Part shown: piece by piece, positions 2,978 through 31,090 of the stretch
Position numbering within the stretch: the stretch's first letter is position 1
Layout: every line of letters begins with the position of its first letter
From: Candidatus Scalindua sp.
GTDB taxonomy: Bacteria > Planctomycetota > Brocadiia > Brocadiales > Scalinduaceae
Assembly (NCBI GenBank): GCA_031316235.1
Contig: JALDRA010000001.1
Coordinates: 1,140,001-1,172,000 of the forward strand
Direction: 5' to 3'
Length of the DNA: 32,000 bases
Position numbers and translations under genes: made by a program
Notes under the pieces: model-generated
What the model was told of the DNA's origin: nothing
The model's database searches: none
What the model saw: the letters and a program-made list of their open reading frames with translations, nothing else

Positions 2978-4156
2978 ATGACAAGTATATTTCTTAGCCA
3001 TAGTCATGCAGACAAACCTTTCGTAAGGAAGCTTGCGTCAGATTTGACTGAGAATGGGGTTAAAGTTTGGCTTGATGAGGCTGAAATGCTCATAGGAGAT
3101 TCGCTTATTGAAAAGATAAGTGCTGGACTTGAAGAAACCGCATTTGTCGGAGCCATATTATCAGAAAATTCTGTAACTTCGAGTTGGGTGAAAAGAGAGC
3201 TCGAAATAGCGATCAATGAAGAAATAGATGGAAAACAGAGAAAAGTTCTACCCATAGTAATTGAAAACTGTGACATTCCTAAATTTCTTGCAGGGAAGCT
3301 TTACGCCGATTTTAGAGACCCGGATACTTATAATCAAAAACTCAATATGGTTCTAAAAAGCCTAGGAATTAACGTTGATGTTTTGAGTGATAAACCATTT
3401 GAACCAGAAACAATACTAATTCCAAAAGGTAGTTTCCTTATGGGTAGTGATAGGAAAATTGATGACTACGCAGATGATGATGAACTACCCCTGCATGAGC
3501 TATACCTTGGATATTACTACTTGGGAAGAACGACGGTTACGAATAGTCAGTTTGCCGAATATGTACGTCAAACAAATAATATTCCGAAAAAGTGGAAGGA
3601 TTTTGGATATGACCCTGAGAAAGGGATTAAACAAAGCTTGCTTAATCACCCAGCGGTTTGGATTACTTGGTACGAGGCGCTCGATTATTGTGTTTGGCTA
3701 TCTGCTATGACCGGAAAAAAATACAAACTCCCGTCGGAAGCAGAGTGGGAGAAAGGTGCAAGAGGGACATCAGGTAGGATATACCCGTGGGGTGATAAGT
3801 ATTCTCCAGAACGCGCTAGAAACTGCGACAAAGGGGAAGTTGAAATCGACGAAATACATGTTGATGTAGAGTCTTATCACATAGGGGGCAGTCCTTATGG
3901 GTTGTTACATATGGCGGGTAATGTACAAGAATGGACTTCTAGCTTATGGGGTGCTAACCAAACAACGAGCTTTCCCTATCCATACAGTTCCTCTGATGGA
4001 AGGGAATATCAATTAGCGAATAGTGATATTGCTAGAGTAGTAAGAGGAGGTTCGTTCTTACATAATATGAAGGGCATAAGATGTGCGTACCGAAATGGTG
4101 TAAAACCAAATGACCCAGGTGCAGCCATAGGTTTTCGTATAGTGAAAGTCGTGTAA
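2978..4156 (+). CDS. TIR domain / FGE (SUMF1)-like domain fusion protein
   Basis: N-terminal TIR motifs: IFLSHSHADKPFV, VWLDEAEMLIGD, SSWVKRELEIA. C-terminal FGE-family motifs: HPAVWITWYEALDYCVWLS, LPSEAEWEKGARG, YPWGD, HMAGNVQEWT, RVVRGGSF, IGFRIV. Confidence 0.85.
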   Translation: MTSIFLSHSHADKPFVRKLASDLTENGVKVWLDEAEMLIGDSLIEKISAGLEETAFVGAILSENSVTSSWVKRELEIAINEEIDGKQRKVLPIVIENCDIPKFLAGKLYADFRDPDTYNQKLNMVLKSLGINVDVLSDKPFEPETILIPKGSFLMGSDRKIDDYADDDELPLHELYLGYYYLGRTTVTNSQFAEYVRQTNNIPKKWKDFGYDPEKGIKQSLLNHPAVWITWYEALDYCVWLSAMTGKKYKLPSEAEWEKGARGTSGRIYPWGDKYSPERARNCDKGEVEIDEIHVDVESYHIGGSPYGLLHMAGNVQEWTSSLWGANQTTSFPYPYSSSDGREYQLANSDIARVVRGGSFLHNMKGIRCAYRNGVKPNDPGAAIGFRIVKVV

Positions 4157-4164
4157 ATTTAAAT

Positions 4165-4517
4165 GTCTAACGCCAGCAATTAACTCGGACAAATCTCCGC
4201 GGTGCTTGTTTTGTGCTAAAAAAGAAAAGAAAAAGGGGTCAAAAAAGAAAAGGGGTCAGATCTTTCCATGACTGCATATCTGCTTTAAGACTGTATATTG
4301 CTTTTTTATATTTGTACTATTATTCATACTCTCTTTCAACCGAAAATTGCTTGAAGCTATAGTTTTGTAAGAGTTGGTTTTATATCTTTTTGCGATCTCT
4401 GGAAAACTCAGTCCTGATATACTAAAACCGATTTGGTTTTCGGTTTTACCGGAAACTCATTCAAAGCGGATTCGTAGGGCAGTTGACGGCTGTCAACACT
4501 GTTGAGAATCGTTAGAT
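4165..4517 (+). repeat. attC-like site, expanded or disrupted
   Basis: The 5' box GTCTAAC (4165-4171) lies 8 nt after the stop codon. The 3' box GTTAGAT (4511-4517) is near-complementary to it. The ~350-bp interval contains a MITE-1 fragment, a Rep4-like piece and GGGGTCA motifs. Confidence 0.4.
4418..4456 (-). mobile_element. MITE-1 fragment (one terminus only)
   Basis: TATACTAAAACCGATTTGGTTTTCGGTTTTACCGGAAAC matches the termini of full copies at 28065 and 30979, after which homology stops. Confidence 0.5.
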
Positions 4518-4925: not shown

Positions 4926-5052
4926 ACCTAACCAGTCACTGGAGGTGACGCCTTTATCTCTTGCGATTTTTGAGTTTTTGGATTCTTTGCTTATTTTGTT
5001 TTTTTCCATTATTATATACGCCATACGGCGTACCTCACCTCAAACGTTATAC
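4926..5052 (+). repeat. attC-like site (singleton, 127 bp)
   Basis: 5' box ACCTAAC (4926-4932) and 3' box GTTATAC (5046-5052). The arm CAGTCACTGGAGGTGACGCC pairs with GGCGTACCTCACCTCAAAC. Confidence 0.6.
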
Positions 5053-5274
5053 GCTCAACGATAAAAGCATTATCAAGATTTAAAGTCATATTGAAGATTT
5101 TCTTTAAGGAACCTATATTTACTGTAAAATGAAAATATAAACAATTGTGTTTATACCGCTATATTGGAGTTATAAGAACAGTTTTTCCCATACACACGTT
5201 ACCGGTAAGCCGCTGAAATAACGCGTGAAACAAACAAATAAAAATTAAAACTATTAACAAACTGGGGGGCAACA

Positions 5275-7647
5275 ATGAAAAAAATCACCTACACCTTAAT
5301 TGCATTGGTATTACTATCAAGTGCGAGCTTCGCTTCATCAAATCAAAAAACAGATACGGCTATTGTTACCAATAGTATCGACAGAACAATTCTTCCAATA
5401 AAAGAACCGACTCCACCAACCTTCACTGAATTGGATGTGCGCAATGCAAAGTTGCCCCCCCGATTTGAGGTCAAAGCTCCTGAAGGAGCACCCAATGTGC
5501 TATTGGTTTTAATTGATGATCTTGGCTTTGCGGGTACGAGCACCTTCGGTGGTCCGGTTCCTACACCTGCTTTTGATAAGGTCGCAAATGAAGGACTTTA
5601 TTTTAATAATTTTCATACCACTGCTGTGTGCTCGCCCACCAGAACGGCATTAAAAAGTGGCCGCAACCACCATGTTGGCAACATGGGAAGCATTATTGAA
5701 ACCGGCACTGGTTTCCCTGGAAATACAGGCAAGATTCCACAAAATGTTACACCAGTTGCGGAAATGCTACGATTAAATGGTTACTCGACTGCCGCATTTG
5801 GTAAATGGCATGAGTTAGCAGCATGGGAGGCAAACGTTTCCGGGCCTTTTGACCGTTGGCCTACGCGTCAAGGATTTGATAAGTTTTATGGATTCCTCGG
5901 TGGGGAAACCAATCAATGGGCTCCATTTATATACGATGGTGTTCATCCTGTTGAGTTACCGGATGATCCAAATTATCACTTCATGGAAGATATGACAGAT
6001 CAAGCGACAGCATGGATAAAATATCAAAAAGCCTTAACGCCCGACAAACCATTTTTTTTGTATTTTGCTCCTGGTGCTACTCACGCTCCGCATCATGTAC
6101 CACAAAGTTATATTAACAAGTGGAAAGGAAAATTTGATGGGGGTTGGGATGCCATGCGTGAACAGATTTTGGCTCGTCAAATTGAAATAGGCATTACACC
6201 AAAAGGAACCAAATTGGCTCCAAAACCTGAAGCAATACAAGAGTGGGAAAGTCTTTCAGCAGATGAAAAACGACTTTATGCGAAACAAGCCGAAGTTTTT
6301 GCCGCATTTCTTGAAATGACGGATTATGAAGTTGGACGCCTGATTGATGCAATTGACGAGATTGGTCAAGCAGAGAATACAATGGTTATTTTTGTTTATG
6401 GCGATAATGGTACCAGTGCGGAAGGTGGAACAAGCGGTATGTACAGCGAAATGACCTACTTTAATGGGGTACAAGAAACCGTTCCGGATATGCTAAAGAA
6501 AATTGATGAGTGGGGTGGTCCGAACACGTACCCTCATATGGCTGCCGGTTGGGCCGTAATGTTTGATACACCATACAAATGGACTAAGCAAATGGGATCA
6601 GACCATGGTGGAACTAAAGTGGGTATGGCTATTCGCTGGCCAAAAGGAATTAAGGCAAAAGGAGAATTGCGTACACAATTTACACATGTAATTGATGTAG
6701 CTCCGACCATTTTAGAAGCAATTGGATTACCAGAGCCAACAGAAGTTAATGGAGTAGCGCAACGACCAATGGATGGAACAAGCATGTTGTACACTTTCAA
6801 TGAAGCAAATGCTAAAGAAAGACATACTACTCAATATTTTGAAATGTTTGGTAACCGGGCTATGTATCATGATGGCTGGTATGCAAGAACCATTCATAGA
6901 GCTCCATGGGAAAAAACGCCAAGAAGACCTCTTACTGAGGATATTTGGGAACTTTACGAAGTGGCCAATGATTTTAGTTTAATAAATGATCTTTCAGCTG
7001 AACATCCTGAAAAATTAAAAGAGCTACAAGACCTATTTATGAAAGTAGCGGAAGAAAATCACGTGTTGCCCATTGACGACCGTGTGTTCGAACGCATCAT
7101 TGCAGCAAATGTAGGACGTCCTGATATTATGGCGGGCCGTAGTTCATTAACATTAGCTGAAGGCATGACGGGTATGACCGAAAACACTTTCCTGAATATA
7201 AAAAATAAATCAGTAGTTATTACTGCTGAAATTAAGGTTAAAGAAGGCGCCTCTTCGAATGGAATTATTATTGCTCAAGGTGGTCGTTTTGGCGGTTGGG
7301 CATTGTATGTAAAAGATGGCGTTCCTGCTTACGACTATAATTTCTTAGGAATTGAACGTTATACGGTAAAAGCTTCAGAAAAGTTAAAACCCGGTAAATA
7401 CACCATCAAATTTGATTTTGCTTACGATGGTGGTGGTATTGGTAAAGGCGGAATGGGTACCTTCTATATAAATGGCACTAAATCGGGTGAAGGCCGGATA
7501 GAACGCACACAACCCGCAATATTCTCTGCCGATGAAACTGCCGATGTTGGCATCGATCTATCTACACCGGTAGTAGAAACTATTGGCGCAGAACATAAAT
7601 CAAAATTTAACGGACATATACCAAAAGTGGTTGTTGAAGTGAAATAA
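5275..7647 (+). CDS. Exported Cys-type arylsulfatase (~790 aa, AtsA-like)
   Basis: Signal peptide MKKITYTLIALVLLSSASFA. Sulfatase signature TAVCSPTRTALKSGR (CxPxR), plus LIDDLGF and GKWH motifs. Confidence 0.9.
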   Translation: MKKITYTLIALVLLSSASFASSNQKTDTAIVTNSIDRTILPIKEPTPPTFTELDVRNAKLPPRFEVKAPEGAPNVLLVLIDDLGFAGTSTFGGPVPTPAFDKVANEGLYFNNFHTTAVCSPTRTALKSGRNHHVGNMGSIIETGTGFPGNTGKIPQNVTPVAEMLRLNGYSTAAFGKWHELAAWEANVSGPFDRWPTRQGFDKFYGFLGGETNQWAPFIYDGVHPVELPDDPNYHFMEDMTDQATAWIKYQKALTPDKPFFLYFAPGATHAPHHVPQSYINKWKGKFDGGWDAMREQILARQIEIGITPKGTKLAPKPEAIQEWESLSADEKRLYAKQAEVFAAFLEMTDYEVGRLIDAIDEIGQAENTMVIFVYGDNGTSAEGGTSGMYSEMTYFNGVQETVPDMLKKIDEWGGPNTYPHMAAGWAVMFDTPYKWTKQMGSDHGGTKVGMAIRWPKGIKAKGELRTQFTHVIDVAPTILEAIGLPEPTEVNGVAQRPMDGTSMLYTFNEANAKERHTTQYFEMFGNRAMYHDGWYARTIHRAPWEKTPRRPLTEDIWELYEVANDFSLINDLSAEHPEKLKELQDLFMKVAEENHVLPIDDRVFERIIAANVGRPDIMAGRSSLTLAEGMTGMTENTFLNIKNKSVVITAEIKVKEGASSNGIIIAQGGRFGGWALYVKDGVPAYDYNFLGIERYTVKASEKLKPGKYTIKFDFAYDGGGIGKGGMGTFYINGTKSGEGRIERTQPAIFSADETADVGIDLSTPVVETIGAEHKSKFNGHIPKVVVEVK

Positions 7648-8541: not shown

Positions 8542-8668
8542 GTCCAACAAATCAGTGGAGCCAACTCCTCCGTCATTTGCGATTCGATTATTCACAGGCT
8601 CTTTGTTTATCTTATTTATTTCTATTATTTTGTTTGCCAAACGGGGTAGATCACTTCAGACGTCAGGC
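8542..8668 (+). repeat. attC-like site, family 2 copy a (127 bp)
   Basis: 5' box GTCCAAC (8542-8548) and 3' box GTCAGGC (8662-8668, GTT degraded to GTC). Same family as 9866 and 18777. Confidence 0.55.
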
Positions 8669-8671
8669 AAA

Positions 8672-8810
8672 TATACTCATCTCATAATGGTTTTCGGATA
8701 AAATCCGGGATAAAATTGAGCGAGTAAAGTCCTCGGCGCTTTTTGTCCGGGGATACCTTCACCAAGATTTGGTTTCCGGTAAAACCGAAAACCAAATCGG
8801 TTTTAGTATA
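8672..8810 (+). mobile_element. MITE-1, long form (139 bp)
   Basis: TATACTCATCTCATAATGGTTTTCGGATAAAATCC...ACCAAATCGGTTTTAGTATA with imperfect TIRs and two internal hairpins. It carries a 27-nt insert relative to the 112-bp form. Confidence 0.7.
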
Positions 8811-9865: not shown

Positions 9866-10128
9866 TCCTAACAAATCTGTGGAGTCAACCCCTCCGTCAT
9901 TTGTGATTCGATTATTTTCAGGTTCATTGTTTATCTTATTTTTATCTATACTCATCTCATACTGGATTTCGGATAAAATCCGGGATAAAATTGAGCGAGT
10001 AAAGTCCTCGGCGCTTTTTGTCCGGGGATACCTTCACCAGGATCTGGTTTCCGGTAAAACCGGAAACCAAATCGGTATTAGTATATTATTTTATTTACCA
10101 AACGTGTTTGCTTACCTCAACGTTACAG
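9866..10128 (+). repeat. attC-like site, family 2 copy b, split by a MITE
   Basis: 5' box TCCTAAC (9866-9872) and 3' box GTTACAG (10122-10128). It is collinear with 8542-8668 once 9947-10085 is removed. Confidence 0.55.
9947..10085 (+). mobile_element. MITE-1, long form, inserted in an attC with a TA duplication
   Basis: The occupied site reads TATC-TA-[TACTCATC...TTAGTA]-TA-TTATTTT. The empty-site equivalent in copy 8542 reads TTTC-TA-TTATTTT. Confidence 0.75.
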
Positions 10129-10179
10129 GAAAACACATTAACAAAATTTGTAATTTCAGCACTTCATAAGGAGCAAAAA

Positions 10180-12533: not shown

Positions 12534-12667
12534 CACAACTGAATTTTATCAGTAATTGAGCTTGTTTACAGGAAGATGCATCAAAATTGCAGACACCTTT
12601 CTGGTCTTTAGAACGGTATTGTAATTTTTTACAGCTCAACTATCGATAAAATCCTTACCGTTATGAA
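12534..12667 (+). repeat. attC-like site (singleton, 134 bp)
   Basis: GCACAAC (12534-12540) and GTTATGA (12661-12667). The arms TGAATTTTATC/GATAAAATCC and AGTAATTGAGC/GCTCAACTATC pair. Confidence 0.5.
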
Positions 12668-12685
12668 AGAAATTATAATAACGCT

Positions 12686-12714
12686 TGACATTATTAACGA
12701 GATGCAATACTATC
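12686..12714 (+). promoter_or_regulatory. Sigma70-like promoter of higBA
   Basis: TTGACA (12686-12691), a 17-nt spacer, then TACTAT (12709-12714). The ATG lies 7 nt after the -10 box and there is no SD. Confidence 0.5.
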
Positions 12715-12720
12715 TAATAA

Positions 12721-13002
12721 ATGATAAAAAACTTTGCTTGCAAAGAAACAGAGGAAATATACAATCGTCGAATATCACTCAAACTTCCGCGGGATATACA
12801 AAAAACTGCCCGGAGAAAACTTGAAATACTTGAAGGTGCTGAAGCCCTGATGGATTTACGTATACCACCGGATAATCATCTTGAAAAACTATCGAAGGAC
12901 AGGAAGAGGCAATATAGTATCCGTATTAATGATCAATGGCGTATATGTTTTGAATGGCGTGGAGGAGATGTTTACAACGCTGAAACAGTAGATTATCATT
13001 AA
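12721..13002 (+). CDS. higB: HigB-type toxin (RelE/ParE superfamily killer protein)
   Basis: [52 protein letters not shown]...VDYH matches the HigB signature. Confidence 0.85.
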
Positions 13003-13012
13003 GGAGGTAACG

Positions 13013-13318
13013 ATGACAAAAAAGCTATTAGATCCAATTCATCCGGGTAAAATTCTTATGGAAGAATTTCTCAAACCCATGGGTATTAGTCAGTACAGGC
13101 TGGCTAAAGATATTAATGTACCTGCACGTAGAATAAATGAGATTGTTCAGGGGAAACGTTCTATAACTCCGAATACAGCTTTAAGATTATCAAGATTTTT
13201 CGGTCTTTCAGAAAGGTTCTGGGTGAATCTTCAGGCTAGATACGATCTTGAAATAGAAAAAGATAGATTAAAGAATCGACTTGATGAAGAAGTGCATGTT
13301 TACACTTCTGCAATATAA
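13013..13318 (+). CDS. higA: HigA antitoxin (XRE-type HTH)
   Basis: IHPGKILMEEFLKPMGISQYRLAKDINVPARRINEIVQGKRSITPNTALRLSRFFG. AGGAGG RBS, starting 10 nt after higB. Confidence 0.85.
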   Translation: MTKKLLDPIHPGKILMEEFLKPMGISQYRLAKDINVPARRINEIVQGKRSITPNTALRLSRFFGLSERFWVNLQARYDLEIEKDRLKNRLDEEVHVYTSAI

Positions 13319-13339
13319 ACAGTTTTGCAGCGAACCTAT

Positions 13340-13464
13340 ACATAACAAGCGCATGAAGCCAACCACCAATAACTATGCGATTTAATATTTATTGAGGCTG
13401 CCGCTCCAAGCCTCTATTGCAGGCCTGCCGCACAGGTGGTGGTTGCTTAAGCAAAACGTTCGGC
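13340..13464 (+). repeat. attC-like site, family 1 copy B
   Basis: 5' box ACATAAC (13340-13346) and 3' box GTTCGGC (13458-13464). About 80% identical by eye to copy A. Confidence 0.65.
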
Positions 13465-13525
13465 GCCAGAAAAAAAATAGCAGGAATAGTCCTGGCTTTA
13501 CTATGAAAACGGGAAGGAGCACATC

Positions 13526-18776: not shown

Positions 18777-18903
18777 TTCTAACAAATCAGTGGAGCTAAC
18801 CCCTCCGTCATTTGTGATTCGATCCTTTTCAGGCTCTTTGCTTACCTTATTTTTGTCCATTATTTCATTTGCCAAACTGGGTTGCTCACTTCAGACATTA
18901 TAA
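18777..18903 (+). repeat. attC-like site, family 2 copy c
   Basis: 5' box TTCTAAC (18777-18783). The 3' box position reads ATTATAA (18897-18903). Collinear with 8542-8668. Confidence 0.5.
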
Positions 18904-19022
18904 GGGTTAACAAAACCATCAAACAACTAAAAATGTTGATTTACTTTCTCGTGAACAATAGCGTGTACAAACAAAATATTACTATAGAGCCTCCGCATAA
19001 ACTCGAACGAAAAGTGTTCAAC

Positions 19023-20880
19023 GCAAAATTTTTTTTACTCGTATTTCAAAATCAAGTAAAAAGCAAACAGAAAGAAATAGCACAGCACCAATAATGGAGG
19101 TAATTTGCAAATTTGGAAACACCTCTCCCATGGTCTTTTATTTTGCTTCCAGAAACATCAATTTAATTCTGTAACAAGAGGTGAAAAGCAATCATCGTCT
19201 TATCCAGGTATGCCTGAAATGAGAGATTCCCTCTCTTGCTTAAACGATCATCACCACTATCACACTTCAGCCGCTTTATCATCCGCTCAACTGAAGGGCG
19301 ACGTGTCATTATCGCCTTAAATCTCTTTGCCATCGGAGGGTCTTCTGTGTCTATGTGGGATAACAATCCAAATGATATATTAATCATCCTGCCGGTTAGC
19401 GAATTGGGGCAACACTCTACCTGATGCCGGCATGTTGAACACACCGATCCTCCATCTGTATCCGTTGGCGCATGATAAATGAATTTCTCTCGTTCATAAC
19501 GCATTCCTTTGTAATCCATCTCATGGCCCCCATTGCAAATTACGACACCATACGGCGTTATCTTCTCCATACCACGCGGCAACCCAACTGTTACTTCCCT
19601 CTGACGCCTTGGATTTAAAGATGCCTTTAATTCCAGCCCAAGTTTGTCCATAAACTTATCTTTCAAATCTTTGCTGTCACACGCACTATCATACAATGCT
19701 CTTTTAACCGATTCTTTAATTACCGGATAGGTATCAAATACTTCTTCTATATGCGGAAGAAATGTCTCTCCATCATGGGTCGGTCCATCCAACACCGCCC
19801 TTGCATCCAAAGGCACCCCTTGGCGGGGAAAACCGACAATGCTTGCTTTGTGGCCCCAATACATCTTTGTTATGGATTTCACGATTGTTCCCGCTCCTTC
19901 ATCTGCCAGTACCCAGTCATGTTCACACTTGTCTCTGTCTTGACAGCGACACTTCTTGGTTAACTTTGATTGCGACTTCCTCTGCTCCTTGCCGTCTTTG
20001 TCTTTATACTTTACTGTCTCAAACCCTGAATACGCATAATAGTGGGTTGTATCTCCGACTACTTCTTTCTCTATTTTAATCGCACCTGTCTCTATGTTTT
20101 CAGTCACCAGCATAATCTTCATCTTATCCCATAGCCCCCATTCACTCATGATCTGGTCAAACTGCTGCAGTTTACGCTCACTCGGGATATGCCTGCTGCA
20201 ATACTCATCCCTTTCTCCTTTCGGCGCAAATCCACATACTCGGACAAAACTCGGATTACTCTTTAATAACATGGACACCTTTTCCGGTTCGCACGGAAAT
20301 CCCATGAGCGCTGTACCCAAAAAACTCTTCAACAACGCAAAAAAACACTTTGGCCTCTTACCTCCCAATCGAAATGGTACTACCCCGGGAGATATCCTAA
20401 AGGGATTTACCATCTGGACTTTGGATTCAGCCTTTACTTCATAAAGTACTCTACTTTTTTTCTCCTTATCAACCTGCATGGTTACTCTATCAAATAAAAG
20501 CAGCTGCCTTCTATCTTCTTTGCTCTGAGACAATACAACGTTCTTTTGGAGTTTACTCTCTTGCCTCTTTCTCTCTTCTCGCTTATTAAATTCATAAAGC
20601 GCATCATAATACTCAGCACCAAAAACACGGTGTTTCTCCCAGGGAAAATAATATAAAACCCTAAACCACTCTGCATCTGGCGTATTAAGCAGTACCTTGT
20701 CGTCTTCGTGAACGGTGTGAATGAGAAGTGGTTTTTGGTTGCTTTCAATTTGTGATAATGGTAGCATTCTTGTGTGTCCTTTCTTGTATAGTAGTTTGTG
20801 TTGTTGTGTGACTTCTATTATACAAGTTGGGCACCGTATTTTGTAATTTTACTTTTGCATTTTGTAAATTATTTTGCAAA
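19023..20880 (-). mobile_element. Insertion sequence (ends not resolved)
   Basis: Carries a single DDE transposase ORF. AT-rich candidate inverted repeats are GCAAAAT... (19023) against ...ATTTTGC (20877), or TAATTTGCAAA (19101) against TTTGTAAATTA (20861). No clear TSD. Confidence 0.45.
19163..20767 (-). CDS. DDE transposase, IS4/IS5 superfamily-like
   Basis: C-terminal (Y)-x2-R-x3-E-x6-K-type motif MTRRPSVERMIKRLK. Cys-rich inserts CRCQDRDKCEH and CSTCRHQVECC. Confidence 0.7.
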   Translation of the reverse strand: MLPLSQIESNQKPLLIHTVHEDDKVLLNTPDAEWFRVLYYFPWEKHRVFGAEYYDALYEFNKREERKRQESKLQKNVVLSQSKEDRRQLLLFDRVTMQVDKEKKSRVLYEVKAESKVQMVNPFRISPGVVPFRLGGKRPKCFFALLKSFLGTALMGFPCEPEKVSMLLKSNPSFVRVCGFAPKGERDEYCSRHIPSERKLQQFDQIMSEWGLWDKMKIMLVTENIETGAIKIEKEVVGDTTHYYAYSGFETVKYKDKDGKEQRKSQSKLTKKCRCQDRDKCEHDWVLADEGAGTIVKSITKMYWGHKASIVGFPRQGVPLDARAVLDGPTHDGETFLPHIEEVFDTYPVIKESVKRALYDSACDSKDLKDKFMDKLGLELKASLNPRRQREVTVGLPRGMEKITPYGVVICNGGHEMDYKGMRYEREKFIYHAPTDTDGGSVCSTCRHQVECCPNSLTGRMINISFGLLSHIDTEDPPMAKRFKAIMTRRPSVERMIKRLKCDSGDDRLSKRGNLSFQAYLDKTMIAFHLLLQN

Positions 20881-22701: not shown

Positions 22702-22705
22702 AAAC

Positions 22706-22830
22706 TTATAACAAGCGCATGAAACCAACCACCAGATTATATGCAGTTTAATATTTATTGAAGCTAACGTTTCACTGTTCTTCTGCATGAATCATACACA
22801 GGTGATGGTTGCTTATGTGTGTCATTATGG
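22706..22830 (+). repeat. attC-like site, family 1 copy C
   Basis: 5' box TTATAAC (22706-22712). The 3' box position reads ATTATGG (22824-22830). Confidence 0.6.
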
Positions 22831-23684: not shown

Positions 23685-23729
23685 TTTGTTATGGGAGAAT
23701 AACATATTTTGTTATTCTCCCATAACAAA
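23685..23729. repeat. Perfect 20-bp-arm palindrome
   Basis: TTTGTTATGGGAGAATAACA-tattt-TGTTATTCTCCCATAACAAA. Confidence 0.85.
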
Positions 23730-24351: not shown

Positions 24352-25239
24352 ATGTTTGGCAAAAAAAATATAACAATTTTTGTCCTGTTAATTCTATTAT
24401 TTTCCATAGGATGCACTAGCATTCCAGTTAAGAAGTATGAGTTACTAACTAAATCAAGCCAAAGCATAATGAATGGTACGACGGAGACATATAATCGTAT
24501 CGAAAAACTTCAACACATCTTTTCCATTGAAACGGCTGATGATGGACAAATTGATGCAAATACTTTTCAACCCAAAATTGAGATTGAAGAGTGGAAGTTC
24601 GAGTCTTTTGATCTTACACCAGAACTTCGATTTAGAGAGACGGCATTAGAAGTGTTGGTGAAATACTCTCTTGTGTTGGAAGCTTTTACCAAGGAGGATT
24701 TCCAGGGAGAAGTTAATAAAGCGTCTATTGAATTGGCGGGAAGTTTGAAATCACTTGCCGAGACTACAGCACCTAATGATGCGAGCAAAACTCAAGCTGT
24801 CAGTGTTCTTGCAACATTAGTTAATGTAATTGGTACTCAAATCGTCGTGCATAAACAAAAAGAAGCATTAAAAAATGTTATGGACCTAGCTCAAAACGAT
24901 CTCAATGTTTTAGCGACATTAATTAATGGGAGTAATGGTAAATTGAAACAGGCTGTTGGCATACATCTGGACAGAATTATTAGACACAGAAACACAAGAC
25001 GACCACCTGTTAATTCTATTGAACGTTATAACTTTGATCTGGCGGTTTCTAACCTAATCAGTGAAGGAATAGAAGTTAAGGATGCACTTGACACACTTAG
25101 TAACGCAGTAAAAGAATATTCTTTAGCCCATCAAGAAATCAGACAAAAACTTGATGTAAGTGGCACCAGTATAGAAGCATTAACTGCACTCATTAGCGAA
25201 GCACAGCGTATTAATAAATTTTATAGAAGTGTTAAGTAA
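24352..25239 (+). CDS. Lipoprotein of unknown function, predicted all-helical
   Basis: Signal peptide plus lipobox LFSIGC. No family recognised. Confidence 0.7.
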   Translation: MFGKKNITIFVLLILLFSIGCTSIPVKKYELLTKSSQSIMNGTTETYNRIEKLQHIFSIETADDGQIDANTFQPKIEIEEWKFESFDLTPELRFRETALEVLVKYSLVLEAFTKEDFQGEVNKASIELAGSLKSLAETTAPNDASKTQAVSVLATLVNVIGTQIVVHKQKEALKNVMDLAQNDLNVLATLINGSNGKLKQAVGIHLDRIIRHRNTRRPPVNSIERYNFDLAVSNLISEGIEVKDALDTLSNAVKEYSLAHQEIRQKLDVSGTSIEALTALISEAQRINKFYRSVK

Positions 25240-25265
25240 TTTTTCTAGAAAAGGAGAGAATTATC

Positions 25266-25580
25266 ATGAGTCATGAATTATGTGAAAAAATTGGGGGGTT
25301 AGCTTCTCGTGTAAATAACGCAGCCGTACACTCTACTGGTTCTGAAAGTAGGCAATTGCTTGAGATTCAAGATCGGTTTGCTAAGCTACAGCTTGTTGCT
25401 ATTGTTAAGGATCTTCAGGCAGAACATAATGATTATAAGGCGGCAGTCAAAGGTCTTAATGAAGCTATTGATTTTATTGGTGATGCTACAGAGAAAATTA
25501 ACAATGTTGCCAAAGCAATTAAACTTACAGCCAAAGCAGCTGAACTTGTAGAAAAAGCAATTAAGAGTGCCGCAGCATAA
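25266..25580 (+). CDS. Small helical protein (104 aa), unknown function
   Basis: AAGGAGAG RBS, starting 26 nt after the lipoprotein gene. Ala/Lys-rich helical C-terminus. Confidence 0.6.
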   Translation: MSHELCEKIGGLASRVNNAAVHSTGSESRQLLEIQDRFAKLQLVAIVKDLQAEHNDYKAAVKGLNEAIDFIGDATEKINNVAKAIKLTAKAAELVEKAIKSAAA

Positions 25581-25627
25581 AACATAGCAATCGTAGCAAT
25601 CAATCCAATCGGAGGTCCCCCGATTCG

Positions 25628-25678
25628 AAATTTCACTTGAAAATTGCTTCAAAGTACTATAACCATGACTATGATATT
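25628..25678 (+). repeat. Rep4 copy 2, followed by core-like GTTAGGA at 25684-25690
   Basis: Near-identical to 480-531. Confidence 0.6.
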
Positions 25679-25797
25679 TAACTGTTAGGATTTCGAAAAT
25701 TATCAAACAGATCATAAATCATTGACTCAAAGCTATACATATAATCTATTCACGATGGTGAACCATATTCTCAACCCACCTTTAAGGAGAAAACAAA

Positions 25798-26580
25798 ATG
25801 GCTGCTGATAAAACCCAGCAACAGGAAGAGAATGCGAGAAGTAAAATTGGGCGTCATATTGTTTATTTCGCTCTCGCAATAATCGGGATACTAGGTATTT
25901 CTGCATTAATTGTTATATGGCGAGCAGAGGCTACTAGCCTGGAAAAGCGCTTATCTGCGGTAAAAGACATACTTTCCATTCTTTTGCCAGTAGTGGGTAC
26001 CTGGGTTGGTACTGTCCTAGCCTTTTATTTTTCAAAAGAAAATTTTGCCACTGCAGCACAGCAAACTTCCGATTTAGTTCGTCAACTCACTCCTGAAGAG
26101 AAGCTGAAATCTATTAAAGCAAAAAGTGTATGGATATCGATGACTAATAAAAAGACCGTCTCTCTAACTCTTGATAAAGAAGAAAAAGAAATACATCTTA
26201 AAAAAGATATCCTTGACTTACTAACAAAAACCAATAGAAATAGACTGCCAATAGTTACCGCTTCAGGAAATGTAAAGTACTTGATACACCGAAGTATTAT
26301 AGATAAATTTATTTCTGAACAAGCGATTTCAGGAAAACTTTCAGATGAGAAAACAGCAGCGAAATTAACCTTGGAAGAATTCCTTCAGGAGGGTACTTAT
26401 AAACAAATTTCCCAGTCATTTGGTATCGTAAATATAGATGCAAGCCTAATTGATGTTAAAGCACAGATGGATTCAATCGATAATTGCTCAGACGTTTTTG
26501 CGACAGAAGATGGTACAAAAAATGGTAATGCATCGGGTTGGGTGACTAATGGAATCTTACAAGAACATTCAAAAGTCTAA
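25798..26580 (+). CDS. Membrane protein: two N-terminal TM helices plus a C-terminal CBS-pair-like region
   Basis: TM helices HIVYFALAIIGILGISALIVIW and ILSILLPVVGTWVGTVLAFYF. Two CBS-like units (...NRNRLPIVTASGNVKYLIHRSIIDKF and ...NCSDVFATEDGTKNGNASGWVTNGILQE). Confidence 0.6.
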   Translation: MAADKTQQQEENARSKIGRHIVYFALAIIGILGISALIVIWRAEATSLEKRLSAVKDILSILLPVVGTWVGTVLAFYFSKENFATAAQQTSDLVRQLTPEEKLKSIKAKSVWISMTNKKTVSLTLDKEEKEIHLKKDILDLLTKTNRNRLPIVTASGNVKYLIHRSIIDKFISEQAISGKLSDEKTAAKLTLEEFLQEGTYKQISQSFGIVNIDASLIDVKAQMDSIDNCSDVFATEDGTKNGNASGWVTNGILQEHSKV

Positions 26581-26585
26581 ATATG

Positions 26586-26608
26586 GCCTAACGCCGAAGA
26601 GTAGGAGG
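26586..26608 (+). repeat. attC 5' remnant
   Basis: GCCTAACGCC parallels GTCTAACGCC at 4165, and CGCCGAAGA is shared with 14491. No 3' half follows. Confidence 0.4.
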
Positions 26609-26720
26609 TATACTCATCTCATAATGGTTTTCGGATAAAATCCGAGATAAAATTGAGCGAGTATACCTTCACCAAGATTTGGTTTCCGGTAAAACCGAAA
26701 ACCAAATCGGTTTTAGTATA
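26609..26720 (+). mobile_element. MITE-1, short form (112 bp)
   Basis: A full copy lying between the attC remnant and the start-less TIR reading frame. Confidence 0.75.
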
Positions 26721-26779
26721 TTACCAGGGAAGGAAATTTTGATATAGCATTCTCTTTTGCTGGTGAACAGCGAGAATAT

Positions 26780-27652
26780 GTGGAAGCTACCTATACAAAA
26801 TTAAAACAACTCGGTATCTCCGTCTTCTACGACGCATCACAAGTTGCCGATCTTTTGGGTAAGAATTTATACGAATATTTGAGCGATGTTTACCAAAACC
26901 AAGCTAAATATTGTGTAGTTTTCTTATCAAAGGAGTACGCAAATAAGTTGTGGACTAAGCACGAACTAAAGAGTATGCAGGCTCGGGCTTTCCAAGAGTC
27001 AAGAGAGTATATATTACCTGCCCGTTTTGACGACACAGAAATTCCTGGTTTACTTCCTGCTATTGCTTATATAGATCTTAACGAATATGCCCCTGGTAAA
27101 TTTGCTGAATTAATTGCAGATAAAGTCAAAGATCGAGATATGGGACAGGAACCAATCATTAATCCAGAACTCGAAGTAAATTTAACAGATGTTGTCATAT
27201 GGGCTCAAGAATATTTAAGGCCCCAATCGTTAGATCTTTCAGATGCTGTTGCTGAGTCTGTTCGTACATCTTTTCGAGAAGCTGGAATCCAACCAGAACG
27301 CCAACATTTAATTCCATACATTCGGAATCCGAGAGCCGAATACCGTGTTGTTGGCTATTTTGCATTCCAAATTGATCCAATAAAGGAAATGGTTCTGGAC
27401 TTGATTAATGGTCTAAGCCACGAACGAGTGGAGGCAACCGAACGAAAAGAGACCAGGCCACTCTGGCAACTTTTAGTCTGCTTTACATATCTCATGCAGC
27501 ATCAGACCCCTCCTGCGGATCGCGACTTGATCAAGAAGGCTCTTAAAGATTTTATAGAGTTCATGCAGAATGATTCTGCTATAGATCCAGGTGGGGAATG
27601 CCGGGCACGTATTGAAATGATAACAGGGGAACGCTGGCTATTCACTGCATGA
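26780..27652 (+). CDS. TIR-domain protein with an unknown C-terminal domain; 5' end apparently lost
   Basis: The frame is open from 26717 (YITREGNFDIAFSFAGEQREYVEAT...), so the TIR betaA motif FDIAFSFAGE lies upstream of the first canonical start (GTG at 26780). Also YCVVFLSKEYANKLWTKHELKS and ILPARFDDTEIPG. Confidence 0.7.
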   Translation: MEATYTKLKQLGISVFYDASQVADLLGKNLYEYLSDVYQNQAKYCVVFLSKEYANKLWTKHELKSMQARAFQESREYILPARFDDTEIPGLLPAIAYIDLNEYAPGKFAELIADKVKDRDMGQEPIINPELEVNLTDVVIWAQEYLRPQSLDLSDAVAESVRTSFREAGIQPERQHLIPYIRNPRAEYRVVGYFAFQIDPIKEMVLDLINGLSHERVEATERKETRPLWQLLVCFTYLMQHQTPPADRDLIKKALKDFIEFMQNDSAIDPGGECRARIEMITGERWLFTA

Positions 27653-27663
27653 AATATGAAAGC

Positions 27664-27788
27664 GCATAACAATTGCACGAAACCAACCACCAGATTATAT
27701 GCAGTTTAATATTTATTGAAGCCACCGTTTCACTGTTCTCCTGCATGAATAGCGTACCGGTGGTGGTTACTTATGTGTAGCGCTAGGT
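27664..27788 (+). repeat. attC-like site, family 1 copy D
   Basis: 5' box GCATAAC (27664-27670). The 3' box position reads GCTAGGT (27782-27788). Confidence 0.6.
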
Positions 27789-27843
27789 GAAAAAGTAATA
27801 ATAACACTTGAAATTATTAACGAGATGCAATACTATCTAATGA

Positions 27844-28312
27844 ATGATTAAAAACTTTGTTTACAAAAGAACAGAGAAAATATTCAACTGTCGAATACCA
27901 CTTAAACTTCCACGGAATATACAAAAAACTGCCCGAAGAAAACTTGAAATACTCGAAGCTGCTGAAATGCTGGCTGATTTACGTATACCACCAGATAATC
28001 ACCTTGAAAGACTACCGAAAGACAGGAAGGGGCAATAGAGTATCGGTATTGATGATGAATGGCATATACTAAAACCGATTTGGTTTTCAGTTTTACTGGA
28101 AAACAAATCTTGGTGAAGGTATACTCGCTCAATTTTATCTCGGATTTTATCCGAAAACCATTATGAGATGAGTATTTATGTTTTGAATGGCGTAGAGGAG
28201 ATGCTTACAACGTAGAAATAGTAGATTACCATCAGGAGGCACGTATGGCAAAAAAGATAGATTAAAGAATCGACTAGATCAAGAAGTACACGTTTACACT
28301 TCTGCAATGTGA
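27844..28312 (+). pseudogene. Decayed higB-higA paralogue
   Basis: Collinear with 12721-13318. It has a TAT>TAG nonsense at 28036, a MITE inside the WRICFEW codons, and a lost higB stop. higA is reduced to MAKKID* by a ~230-bp deletion between AAAAAG repeats. Confidence 0.8.
28065..28175 (-). mobile_element. MITE-1, short form, inserted in the higB remnant
   Basis: TATACTAAAACCGATTTGG...GAGATGAGTA interrupts sequence that is contiguous in the intact copy at 12948-12960. Confidence 0.75.
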
Positions 28313-28333
28313 ACAATTATGCAGTGATTCTGC

Positions 28334-28453
28334 ACATAACCGCATGAAGCCACCCACCAAGCTCATTCATGATTCACTTTTAGCGAGGCTACTTCTAAAC
28401 CTCCCTTGCATGAATCATACACAGGCGATGGTTGCTTATGCGAAACATTATTA
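28334..28453 (+). repeat. attC-like site, family 1 copy E
   Basis: 5' box ACATAAC (28334-28340). CGCATGAAGC pairs with GCTTATGCG. The 3' box position reads ATTATTA (28447-28453). Confidence 0.6.
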
Positions 28454-28463
28454 GGATACCAGA

Positions 28464-30926: not shown

Positions 30927-30978
30927 TATTCACCGCTTTCTTTTTTGTGCTTGAACGGAAATGCTCTGGTTCGGCTAC

Positions 30979-31090
30979 TATACTAAAACCGATTTGGTTT
31001 TCGGTTTTTCTGGAAACCAAATCTTGGTGAAGGCATACTCGCTCCATATTATCTCGGATTTTATCCGAAAACCAGTATGAGATAAGTATA
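30979..31090 (-). mobile_element. MITE-1, short form
   Basis: A full copy just upstream of dus, outside the cassette array. Confidence 0.75.

Follow-up and report, generated by a model that had tools for sequence, protein, structure and literature searches.

A 2TM-CBS membrane protein gene and a truncated TIR gene in a Candidatus Scalindua cassette array: probably two separate units

The DNA analysed here, referred to as the window, is a stretch of 32,000 nucleotides (nt) from Candidatus Scalindua sp. (assembly GCA_031316235.1, contig JALDRA010000001.1, positions 1,140,001 to 1,172,000 of the forward strand), in which a gene for a membrane protein with a CBS pair (gene A, 25798-26580, + strand) is followed by a frame that encodes a TIR domain (gene B, 26729-27652, + strand, stop codon at 27650-27652). 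A sequence-only reading of this region had proposed that the two form a possible Thoeris-like signal/effector pair, now disrupted. In our analysis they are probably separate units that lie side by side in an integron-type array undergoing decay: a dead single-gene cassette of a TIR family designated here TIR-X and an intact, self-sufficient gene for a protein with two transmembrane (TM) helices and a CBS pair (2TM-CBS). On the best reading, gene A and TIR-X are not a co-evolved two-gene system. In practice the result for this locus is a negative one: its TIR gene is broken, and the Thoeris label is inappropriate.

Conservation of the pair was surveyed from both sides, in 80 genome loci of gene A relatives (±10 kb; ~90 loci counting further contigs) and, for TIR-X, in 47 metagenome loci and five contigs with called genes (~55 loci in total). 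No TIR-X family member was found in the 80 genome loci or among the ~90 gene A loci, no gene A family match was found in the 47 metagenome TIR-X loci, and no gene A relative was called beside the TIR-X orthologues in the five contigs. The expectation that homologues of the two proteins would be encoded by adjacent genes elsewhere was thus contradicted at every locus surveyed. As a test for any TIR gene near gene A, the full-length TIR-X hidden Markov model (HMM) was rejected as too narrow; it missed divergent TIR_2 genes that Pfam found in the vicinity of gene A, and a blanket conclusion that such genes never co-localise was therefore revised.

Full-length TIR-X orthologues were also found in single-gene, attC-flanked cassettes of their own, an outcome that the sequence-only reading had named in advance as refuting its pair. 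In locus L083, ccccGTTAGAC lies 64 nt before the ATG and the 3' side carries GTCTAAC, a 60-nt hairpin and GTTCGGC; in locus L130, an ACCTAAC...GTTAGAC site is located directly upstream of the gene, in a series of small open reading frames (ORFs) on the same strand. Judged by these flanks, TIR-X genes do move about singly, as cassettes flanked by attC sites. A genuine Thoeris-like system of two genes, in which the TIR protein would make an ADP-ribose (ADPR)-derived signal, the CBS pair would bind it and the TM hairpin would kill or arrest the cell, with a later loss of the TIR 5' end, has to contend with orthologues that are self-contained and with a pair that recurs nowhere from either side; we consider it rather improbable. 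It draws some support from the arrangement in the window, where the two genes share a strand and, with the mobile element between them and one TA taken out, 47 nt would separate the gene A stop codon from the FD codons of TIR strand betaA.

Gene A is an intact ORF of 260 amino acids (aa). Its product and that of gene B both match at 100% the annotation of the 4.15-Mb contig, from a Candidatus Scalindua sp. metagenome-assembled genome, in which the gene A product is a hypothetical protein. An N-terminal polar helix is followed by TM1 (approximately residues 19-42, nt 25852-25923), TM2 (approximately residues 56-78, nt 25963-26031, with the motif LPVxGTWxGTVLAFYF), a linker helix (residues 80-96) and a cytoplasmic CBS pair (approximately residues 100-260, nt 26095-26577). 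By sequence, Pfam (E<=0.01), NCBIfam and PADLOC all gave no match, nor did a CBS profile; the best PDB match of the gene A family profile was the CBS region of IMPDH, at E 0.21. The AF2 model, built with 24 homologues, shows two long N-terminal helices, the linker helix and then two beta-alpha-beta-beta-alpha units, with a predicted local distance difference test (pLDDT) score of 87.9 overall and ~96 over residues 100-260. A Foldseek search of the PDB with this model returned 66 matches with E<=0.001, and the best 50, which were inspected, are all CBS pairs, headed by MJ0922 (2p9m, E 7e-6, TMt 0.76) and continuing with CorC/CNNM, DarB and AMPK gamma. Since the model and the Foldseek matches agree, the earlier description of the upstream protein as two TM helices plus a tandem CBS module is correct; structure prediction, the check that had been suggested, shows its C-terminal region as a CBS pair. 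By its model, gene A is a protein of two TM helices and a CBS pair, a fold that is visible by structure only.

Gene A homologues fall into 228 clusters. In the family alignment the TM2 segment is almost invariant, LPVxGTWxGTVLAFYFS(R/K)(E/D)N. Polar residues in both CBS units are invariant (R149, H164, S166, K221, D225, D232, T236, D238, T250 and N251), and motif-like HRSxxD and GWxTN segments are conserved. This pattern suggests a membrane segment that is functional, together with a specific site for a ligand. The family is spread across phyla, and its neighbours are heterogeneous; no conserved neighbour of any kind was found in the 80 loci. The loci include some from Bacteroidales that are syntenic with thrS, infC and rplT. 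One relative, P0026, is an identical 258-aa protein that occurs in 51 blocks of the sequence collection and in at least four mobile contexts (L143-L146): beside a Tn3 transposase/resolvase on a 78-kb Thauera replicon, beside IS66, beside integrase/PemK and beside AIPR. As these transposon and plasmid contexts differ, P0026 moves as a single gene, which is a further point against the Thoeris-like pair. The DNA downstream of P0026 seems to be non-coding for ~1 kb at three of these four places and for ~260 nt at the fourth, L146. The gene A family is widespread, mobile and unannotated and has no fixed partner; its members are two-helix membrane proteins of N-in/C-in topology whose CBS pair faces the cytoplasm.

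The breadth of the family across phyla, its mixed neighbours and the Bacteroidales synteny would also suit a housekeeping or regulatory membrane protein, such as an energy-charge or Mg/nucleotide sensor, that has no role in conflict and meets TIR and SIR2 genes by virtue of lying in variable, horizontally acquired regions; CBS pairs are common as regulators of transporters such as CorC/CNNM. Carriage of gene A on transposons, plasmids and cassette-like arrays is, however, unusual for a housekeeping gene, and we regard this explanation as unlikely.

The gene B translation (26729-27649), which reads ...EGNFDIAFSFAGEQREYVE..., matches Pfam TIR_2 at 2e-17, and the PADLOC model ThsB1 matches its TIR region at 3e-10. 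The TIR domain (nt ~26744-27112) begins with betaA FDIAFS and contains a conserved WTKHE glutamate, and in the structural model this part matches BtpA/TcpB, AbTir and PdTIR (TMt 0.70-0.77). The WxxxE-type glutamate is the catalytic position in TIR NADases. The corresponding E79 of WTKHE is invariant across 14 TIR-X orthologues, and a catalytic-type residue kept in this way is what a signal-producing TIR protein of a Thoeris-like system would be expected to have. The second domain (nt ~27164-27643) is all-alpha and carries ETRPLWQLLVC and IDPGGEC. The TIR domain and the C-terminal region recognised by the sequence-only reading are therefore both borne out, the latter as a conserved, all-helical domain of ~160 aa.

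Gene B lacks a usable start. Between an in-frame TAG (26714-26716) and FDIAF the codons are TAT ATT ACC AGG GAA GGA AAT, with no ATG, GTG or TTG among them, as had been noted earlier. The first canonical start is GTG 26780, located 3' of the strand betaA codons, where NCBI begins a 290-aa product. The 14 orthologues have normal starts and open with M plus 1-9 residues (mostly 4-6), followed by (Y/F)D(V/I)A(F/L)S. From GTG 26780 only a product without betaA is possible, so gene B is most likely dead. This copy is thus 5'-truncated, lacking its start and first codons, and the MITE described below sits at the break; the start is absent even when the mobile element is removed, in agreement with the earlier suspicion that the copy is inactive.

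TIR-X orthologues are proteins of 303-317 aa with normal starts and up to 72% identity; the family as a whole consists of ~305-aa proteins with a TIR domain and the helical domain of ~160 residues. The latter is predicted with pLDDT 85-94, and in it ETRPLWQLLVC and IDPGGEC are invariant and two Cys are conserved. It matched no Pfam family, and among solved structures it matched designed helical repeats only. Clustering at 50% identity leaves only 81 clusters of this domain in a set of 1.84 billion representatives. Elsewhere it follows an nSTAND1 NTPase, forms part of a SLOG-cluster-4 protein, follows EAD1 or EAD7, or lies in the middle of proteins of 1,000-1,750 aa (examples are P0243, P0245, P0246, L122, L123 and L125). 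Such fusion architectures are typical of biological-conflict systems. In an intact TIR-X protein the C-domain would recognise a trigger or partner, whereupon the TIR domain would assemble and cleave NAD+.

Two further TIR arrangements were seen. A second TIR gene in the window (2978-4156) is fused to an FGE-sulfatase (formylglycine-generating enzyme-like) domain and has a sulfatase gene downstream (5275-7647). In metagenome locus L128 (1914-6912), a TIR-FGE-sulfatase gene and a GAF-TIR gene are directly followed by a TIR-X orthologue, making three consecutive TIR genes.

The junction between genes A and B contains traces of two kinds of elements. In the spacer directly after gene A (26581-26608, + strand), the bases GCCTAACGCCGAAGAGTAGGAGG include GCCTAAC (26586-26592), which fits the attC R'' consensus RYYYAAC; the bases beyond it resemble the 5' end of one of the attC-like families of the window, family 2 (CCTAACAAATCAGTGGAG), and the R''-like 7-mer plus ~20 nt precede the mobile element. 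The attC 5' remnant that had been reported at 26586 therefore fits the consensus, and an R''-like site at this position argues against a two-gene unit. Over 32 kb, however, each strand is expected to hold ~30 such R''-type 7-mers, which leaves a family-2 R'' remnant plausible and not proven; the sequence is suggestive only. On the other side of gene B, the TIR cassette is closed by an attC-like site of family 1 (27661-27790, + strand) with the R'' core GCATAAC, a long imperfect stem and a degenerate R' core (GCTAGGT).

The second element is a miniature inverted-repeat transposable element (MITE) at 26609-26720 (+ strand). The presence of a MITE between the genes had been recognised correctly, its length of 112 bp less so: the element proper is 108 nt (26611-26718), flanked by TA at 26609-26610 and 26719-26720, and 112 nt is an extension of the repeat. 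This MITE is short and non-coding, with short terminal inverted repeats (TACT...AGTA), and the window holds five full copies and one partial copy (4417-4456). Besides the junction copy, the full copies are 28067-28174 and 30981-31088, both on the - strand, and 8674-8808 and 9949-10083, of 135 nt each with an internal insert. The junction copy is complementary at 97% to the copy at 28064-28175 and at 93% to that at 30976-31090. TA is present on both sides of four of the five full copies. MITE 9949-10083 splits an attC-like repeat of family 2, and joining its flanks with a single TA restores the consensus; MITE 28067-28174 splits a duplicate of higB, and, measured against the intact higB (12721-13002), its two flanks share an overlap of 2 nt. 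These two cases indicate that the MITE duplicates TA when it inserts.

Simple excision of the MITE was considered as a way of restoring the TIR gene and was rejected: the junction without the MITE and one TA reads ...TAA CGC CGA AGA GTA GGA GGT ATT ACC AGG GAA GGA AAT TTT GAT, again with no ATG, GTG or TTG. The MITE itself was also rejected as a source of a start codon, as the TAG that closes the TIR frame upstream lies within its end and is followed only by ATT (26720). It is possible that the TIR 5' end was lost before the MITE arrived, or that it was deleted through recombination between two MITE copies, which would have removed the 3' half of the attC site together with the TIR 5' end. Three of the five full copies (8674-8808, 9949-10083 and 26611-26718) lie inside or a few bases from attC-like sites, one being 5 nt past an R' core, one splitting the family-2 site and one following the R''-like remnant; this hints at a preference of the MITE for attC regions.

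Several observations weigh against treating gene A and TIR genes as mere chance neighbours, or against parts of the reading as two units. A TIR or SIR2 gene is found within 2.6 kb of a gene A relative in ~12 of ~90 loci (~13%), namely L023, L036, L080, L021, L020, L048, L033, L006, L134, L135, the P0010 contig and, faintly, P0011. In a position test, whose background was location within the same ±10-kb gene A loci, 12 of 13 TIR/SIR2 hits lay no more than 2.6 kb from gene A, although this zone makes up only 32% of the sequence (p ~1e-5). The custom SIR2 HMM was seeded from gene A neighbours and is hence biased; with the unbiased subset, comprising a motif scan and an independently seeded TIR HMM as the queries not seeded from these loci, the count was 7 of 7 (p ~3e-4). 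Within the window's own neighbour-joining clade, a TIR or SIR2 neighbour is present in four of nine loci, and the adjacency in the window may therefore not be pure chance; among other relatives of similar identity, P0011 has a faint neighbour and P0018 and P0026 have none. General enrichment in defence islands is not shown, as control genes 6.5 kb away gave as many PADLOC matches as the immediate neighbours or more. The attC remnant between the two genes is unproven, and the sequence upstream of gene A showed no clear boundary of a cassette. Finally, the ligand and the output of gene A are wholly inferred.

The neighbours themselves are varied. Those immediately adjacent on the same strand are a TIR gene at +195 nt in L023 (with an EAD11-TIR gene at +2.5 kb), a SEFIR/TIR_2 gene 163 nt downstream on the contig of P0010, a close relative of gene A, SIR2_2 at +43 nt in L021, a 1013-aa protein with a C-terminal TIR domain 14 nt upstream in L036, a weak SIR2_2 match at -33 nt in L006 and a TIR or SIR2 gene at -107 nt in L135. 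Other loci have a TIR gene at +1.25 kb (L080), SIR2_2 genes divergent from the gene A relative (L020 and L048) or a SIR2_2-TPR gene at -831 nt (L033). Seen by protein, the contexts of close relatives of gene A include a split SIR2 gene 107 nt upstream (P0019), a divergent SIR2_2-NB-ARC-TPR gene (P0003) and a convergent TPR protein with a faint SIR2_2 match (P0011). Pfam, run on 148 immediate neighbours at 77 gene A loci, detected SIR2_2 in four and TIR_2 in two; scans of single neighbours bore out those given above for L023, L036, L080, L021, L020, L048, L033 and L006.

These same-strand neighbours and the proximity test (p 3e-4 to 1e-5) are what the Thoeris-like explanation has in its favour beyond the window, together with the CBS-pair fold predicted for gene A, a class known for adenosine-containing ligands. 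Against it stand the ~85% of gene A loci in which neither a TIR nor a SIR2 gene lies within 10 kb, the scatter of the TIR/SIR2-positive loci over the gene A tree and the finding that the neighbouring NADase proteins, compared with one another, are not homologous, so that no fixed two-gene module is visible; gene A, moreover, matches neither ThsA nor Macro or SLOG. What survives of the proposed signal/effector pair is the CBS fold and a non-random adjacency to other TIR and SIR2 genes, and because of the latter there may be a looser functional link between 2TM-CBS proteins and NAD-cleaving enzymes; what does not survive is the conservation of this particular pair.

The same proximity data bear on the view of gene A as a housekeeping regulator. 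The clustering of TIR/SIR2 hits within 2.6 kb, with several of the genes 14-43 nt away on the same strand, is not in its favour, while the PADLOC matches, as frequent at the controls 6.5 kb away as at the immediate neighbours, are. PADLOC matches among the immediate neighbours include viperin-like, pAgo, TIR, SIR2 and other proteins; those at the controls belong mostly to generic ATPase, kinase and methylase models, and the neighbour counts can therefore not be read as enrichment.

On the preferred reading of two separate units, gene A would work alone, as a membrane protein gated by a ligand. Adenosine-containing ligands are what CBS pairs are known to bind. The pair in gene A would dimerise and bind such a ligand, the resulting change would run via the linker helix (80-96) to the highly conserved TM2, and the change in TM2 would alter membrane permeability or signalling. 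By analogy, the logic would be that of the one-protein CBS-HEPN system DS-11, with the TM hairpin as the output. Given that about one in seven gene A loci has an adjacent TIR or SIR2 gene, a nucleotide derived from NAD may serve as the ligand in some lineages. A bolder proposal is that 2TM-CBS proteins act in prokaryotic immunity as membrane effectors or guards of a new class, gated by nucleotides. In some lineages they would be wired to enzymes of the TIR or SIR2 type, their CBS pair receiving an NAD-derived signal, and the Scalindua locus would be a recently broken example; we put this forward tentatively, as a speculation with modest odds.

The surroundings of the two genes are those of a cassette array. 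Genes in the window are mostly on the + strand and their functions are unrelated; G+C content per 1-kb window ranges from 33 to 60%. Two families of attC-like repeats of 125-150 nt, with AAC...GTT cores and long imperfect stems, were identified by repeat comparison and folding: family 1 at 900-1035, 13337-13465, 22703-22830, 27661-27790 and 28331-28455, and family 2 at 4927-5068, 8543-8668, 9867-9946 plus 10087-10130, and 18778-18910. Their cores are (C/Y)(A/C)TAAC for R'' and GTTAGGC, GTTCGGC or GTTATAC for R'; these attC calls are based on repeat families, alignment and folding only, without a covariance model. Our own attC scan (RYYYAAC...GTTRRRY plus arm complementarity) found none in the window as against 0-4 in shuffled sequence and was non-discriminating. 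The large ORFs in these 32 kb revealed neither an integron integrase nor any tyrosine recombinase; such a gene may sit outside the window. Several R' cores are degenerate and some gaps between recognisable attC sites reach 5-12 kb. The array resembles a chromosomal integron array in partial decay or an attC cluster.

Other features of the array include an intact higB-higA cassette with an attC-like site (12667-13465), of which a second copy, ~86% identical, lies beside the TIR gene (27790-28455); in that copy a MITE (28067-28174) is inserted in higB and part of higA is gone. At 19163-20767 (- strand), a 534-aa ORF with a weak DDE transposase match (PF13751, E 8e-4) lies in a stretch of strongly negative GC skew and is probably an insertion sequence (IS) element that entered the array. 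At 23685-23729 there is an inverted repeat whose 20-nt arms match perfectly around a loop of 5 nt (TTTGTTATGGGAGAATAACA / TGTTATTCTCCCATAACAAA), in the long gap between an isochorismatase gene and a gene for a 295-aa protein. Directly upstream of gene A, at 24352-25580, the latter and a co-oriented gene for a 104-aa protein are 26 nt apart; both products are apparently helical and had no match in Pfam, NCBIfam or PADLOC. A three-gene unit of these with gene A was considered and discarded, as their homologues occur in no gene A locus. The 217-nt region upstream of gene A contains a repeat of ~70 nt (25623-25690, + strand; AAATTTCACTTGAAAATTGCTT.AAAGTA.TATAACCATGACTATGATATT) found by repeat comparison, which has a near-identical copy at 475-545 and a partial copy at 4334-4355, both intergenic; the copy upstream of gene A holds a weak sigma-70-like match (TTCAAA-16-TATGAT).

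Beyond this locus, the 2TM-CBS family offers a concrete and cheap candidate, whether as a receptor/effector of a new kind or as an abortive-infection gene that acts alone. If its CBS pair does receive an NAD-derived signal, the logic would resemble that of Thoeris, with a receptor fold for which such a role is not yet known. A second unannotated module has been defined in the helical C-domain common to TIR, EAD, nSTAND1 and SLOG proteins, and TIR genes of the TIR-X type have been shown, as far as their flanks can tell, to travel as single-gene integron cassettes.

A literature search on Scalindua integrons and on Thoeris with CBS domains gave nothing useful, and comparison was made with better-known systems of similar layout. 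The window resembles type II Thoeris in that a two-TM protein, here with a cytoplasmic domain of the ADP-ribose/adenosine-type ligand class, precedes a TIR gene that keeps its catalytic-type glutamate and matches ThsB1 at 3e-10. In contrast to type II Thoeris, the ligand module is a CBS pair and not Macro or SLOG, the PADLOC ThsA model does not match gene A, the pair is not conserved, and TIR-X has an extra helical domain of 160 aa, orthologues that stand alone and, in this copy, no start codon. Because the receptor domain is of a different type and no conserved operon was found, a Thoeris annotation is unwarranted.

DS-11 is an experimentally validated one-protein CBS-HEPN defence system for which control of the effector by a CBS-bound adenine derivative has been proposed; before it, no characterised defence system had a CBS domain (DefensePredictor, Science 2026, PMC13092281). 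Gene A shares with DS-11 a CBS module joined to a putative effector in one polypeptide, a likeness by architecture only, but its output would be a two-helix membrane hairpin and not a HEPN RNase, and gene A is known from sequence and model. With CorC/CNNM, MgtE and ClC, gene A has in common a cytoplasmic CBS pair on a membrane domain (Foldseek matches 7cfh and 8ct8), but it differs from them in having only two TM helices, no DUF21 or transporter domain and no sequence-level match.

The MITE is similar to TA-duplicating elements of the IS630/Tc1-mariner type in its length of 108-135 nt, its non-coding nature, terminal inverted repeats, TA duplication and gene-disrupting copies; it differs in that no parent transposase was identified and in that attC-like sites contain or adjoin three of its five full copies. 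Defence genes are known integron cassette cargo (bioRxiv 10.1101/2024.07.02.601686). Like sedentary chromosomal integrons and integrase-less attC clusters, the window contains same-strand, promoter-poor genes with attC-like imperfect palindromes between them and toxin-antitoxin cassettes, but it departs from integron arrays in having no integrase, degenerate R' cores and some intervals of 5-12 kb.

TIR-X shares the TIR fold and the conserved WxxxE glutamate with the TIR NADases AbTir, BtpA/TcpB and PdTIR but adds a conserved helical C-domain to it; its activity is only predicted, and the window copy is truncated before betaA. TIR-X is similar to the STAND/EAD conflict systems (nSTAND1 PF20703, EAD1 PF19955, EAD7 PF19960 and SLOG cluster 4 PF18306) in that the same C-domain is fused there too; the C-domain itself has no Pfam match and no match to a solved structure beyond designed helical repeats.

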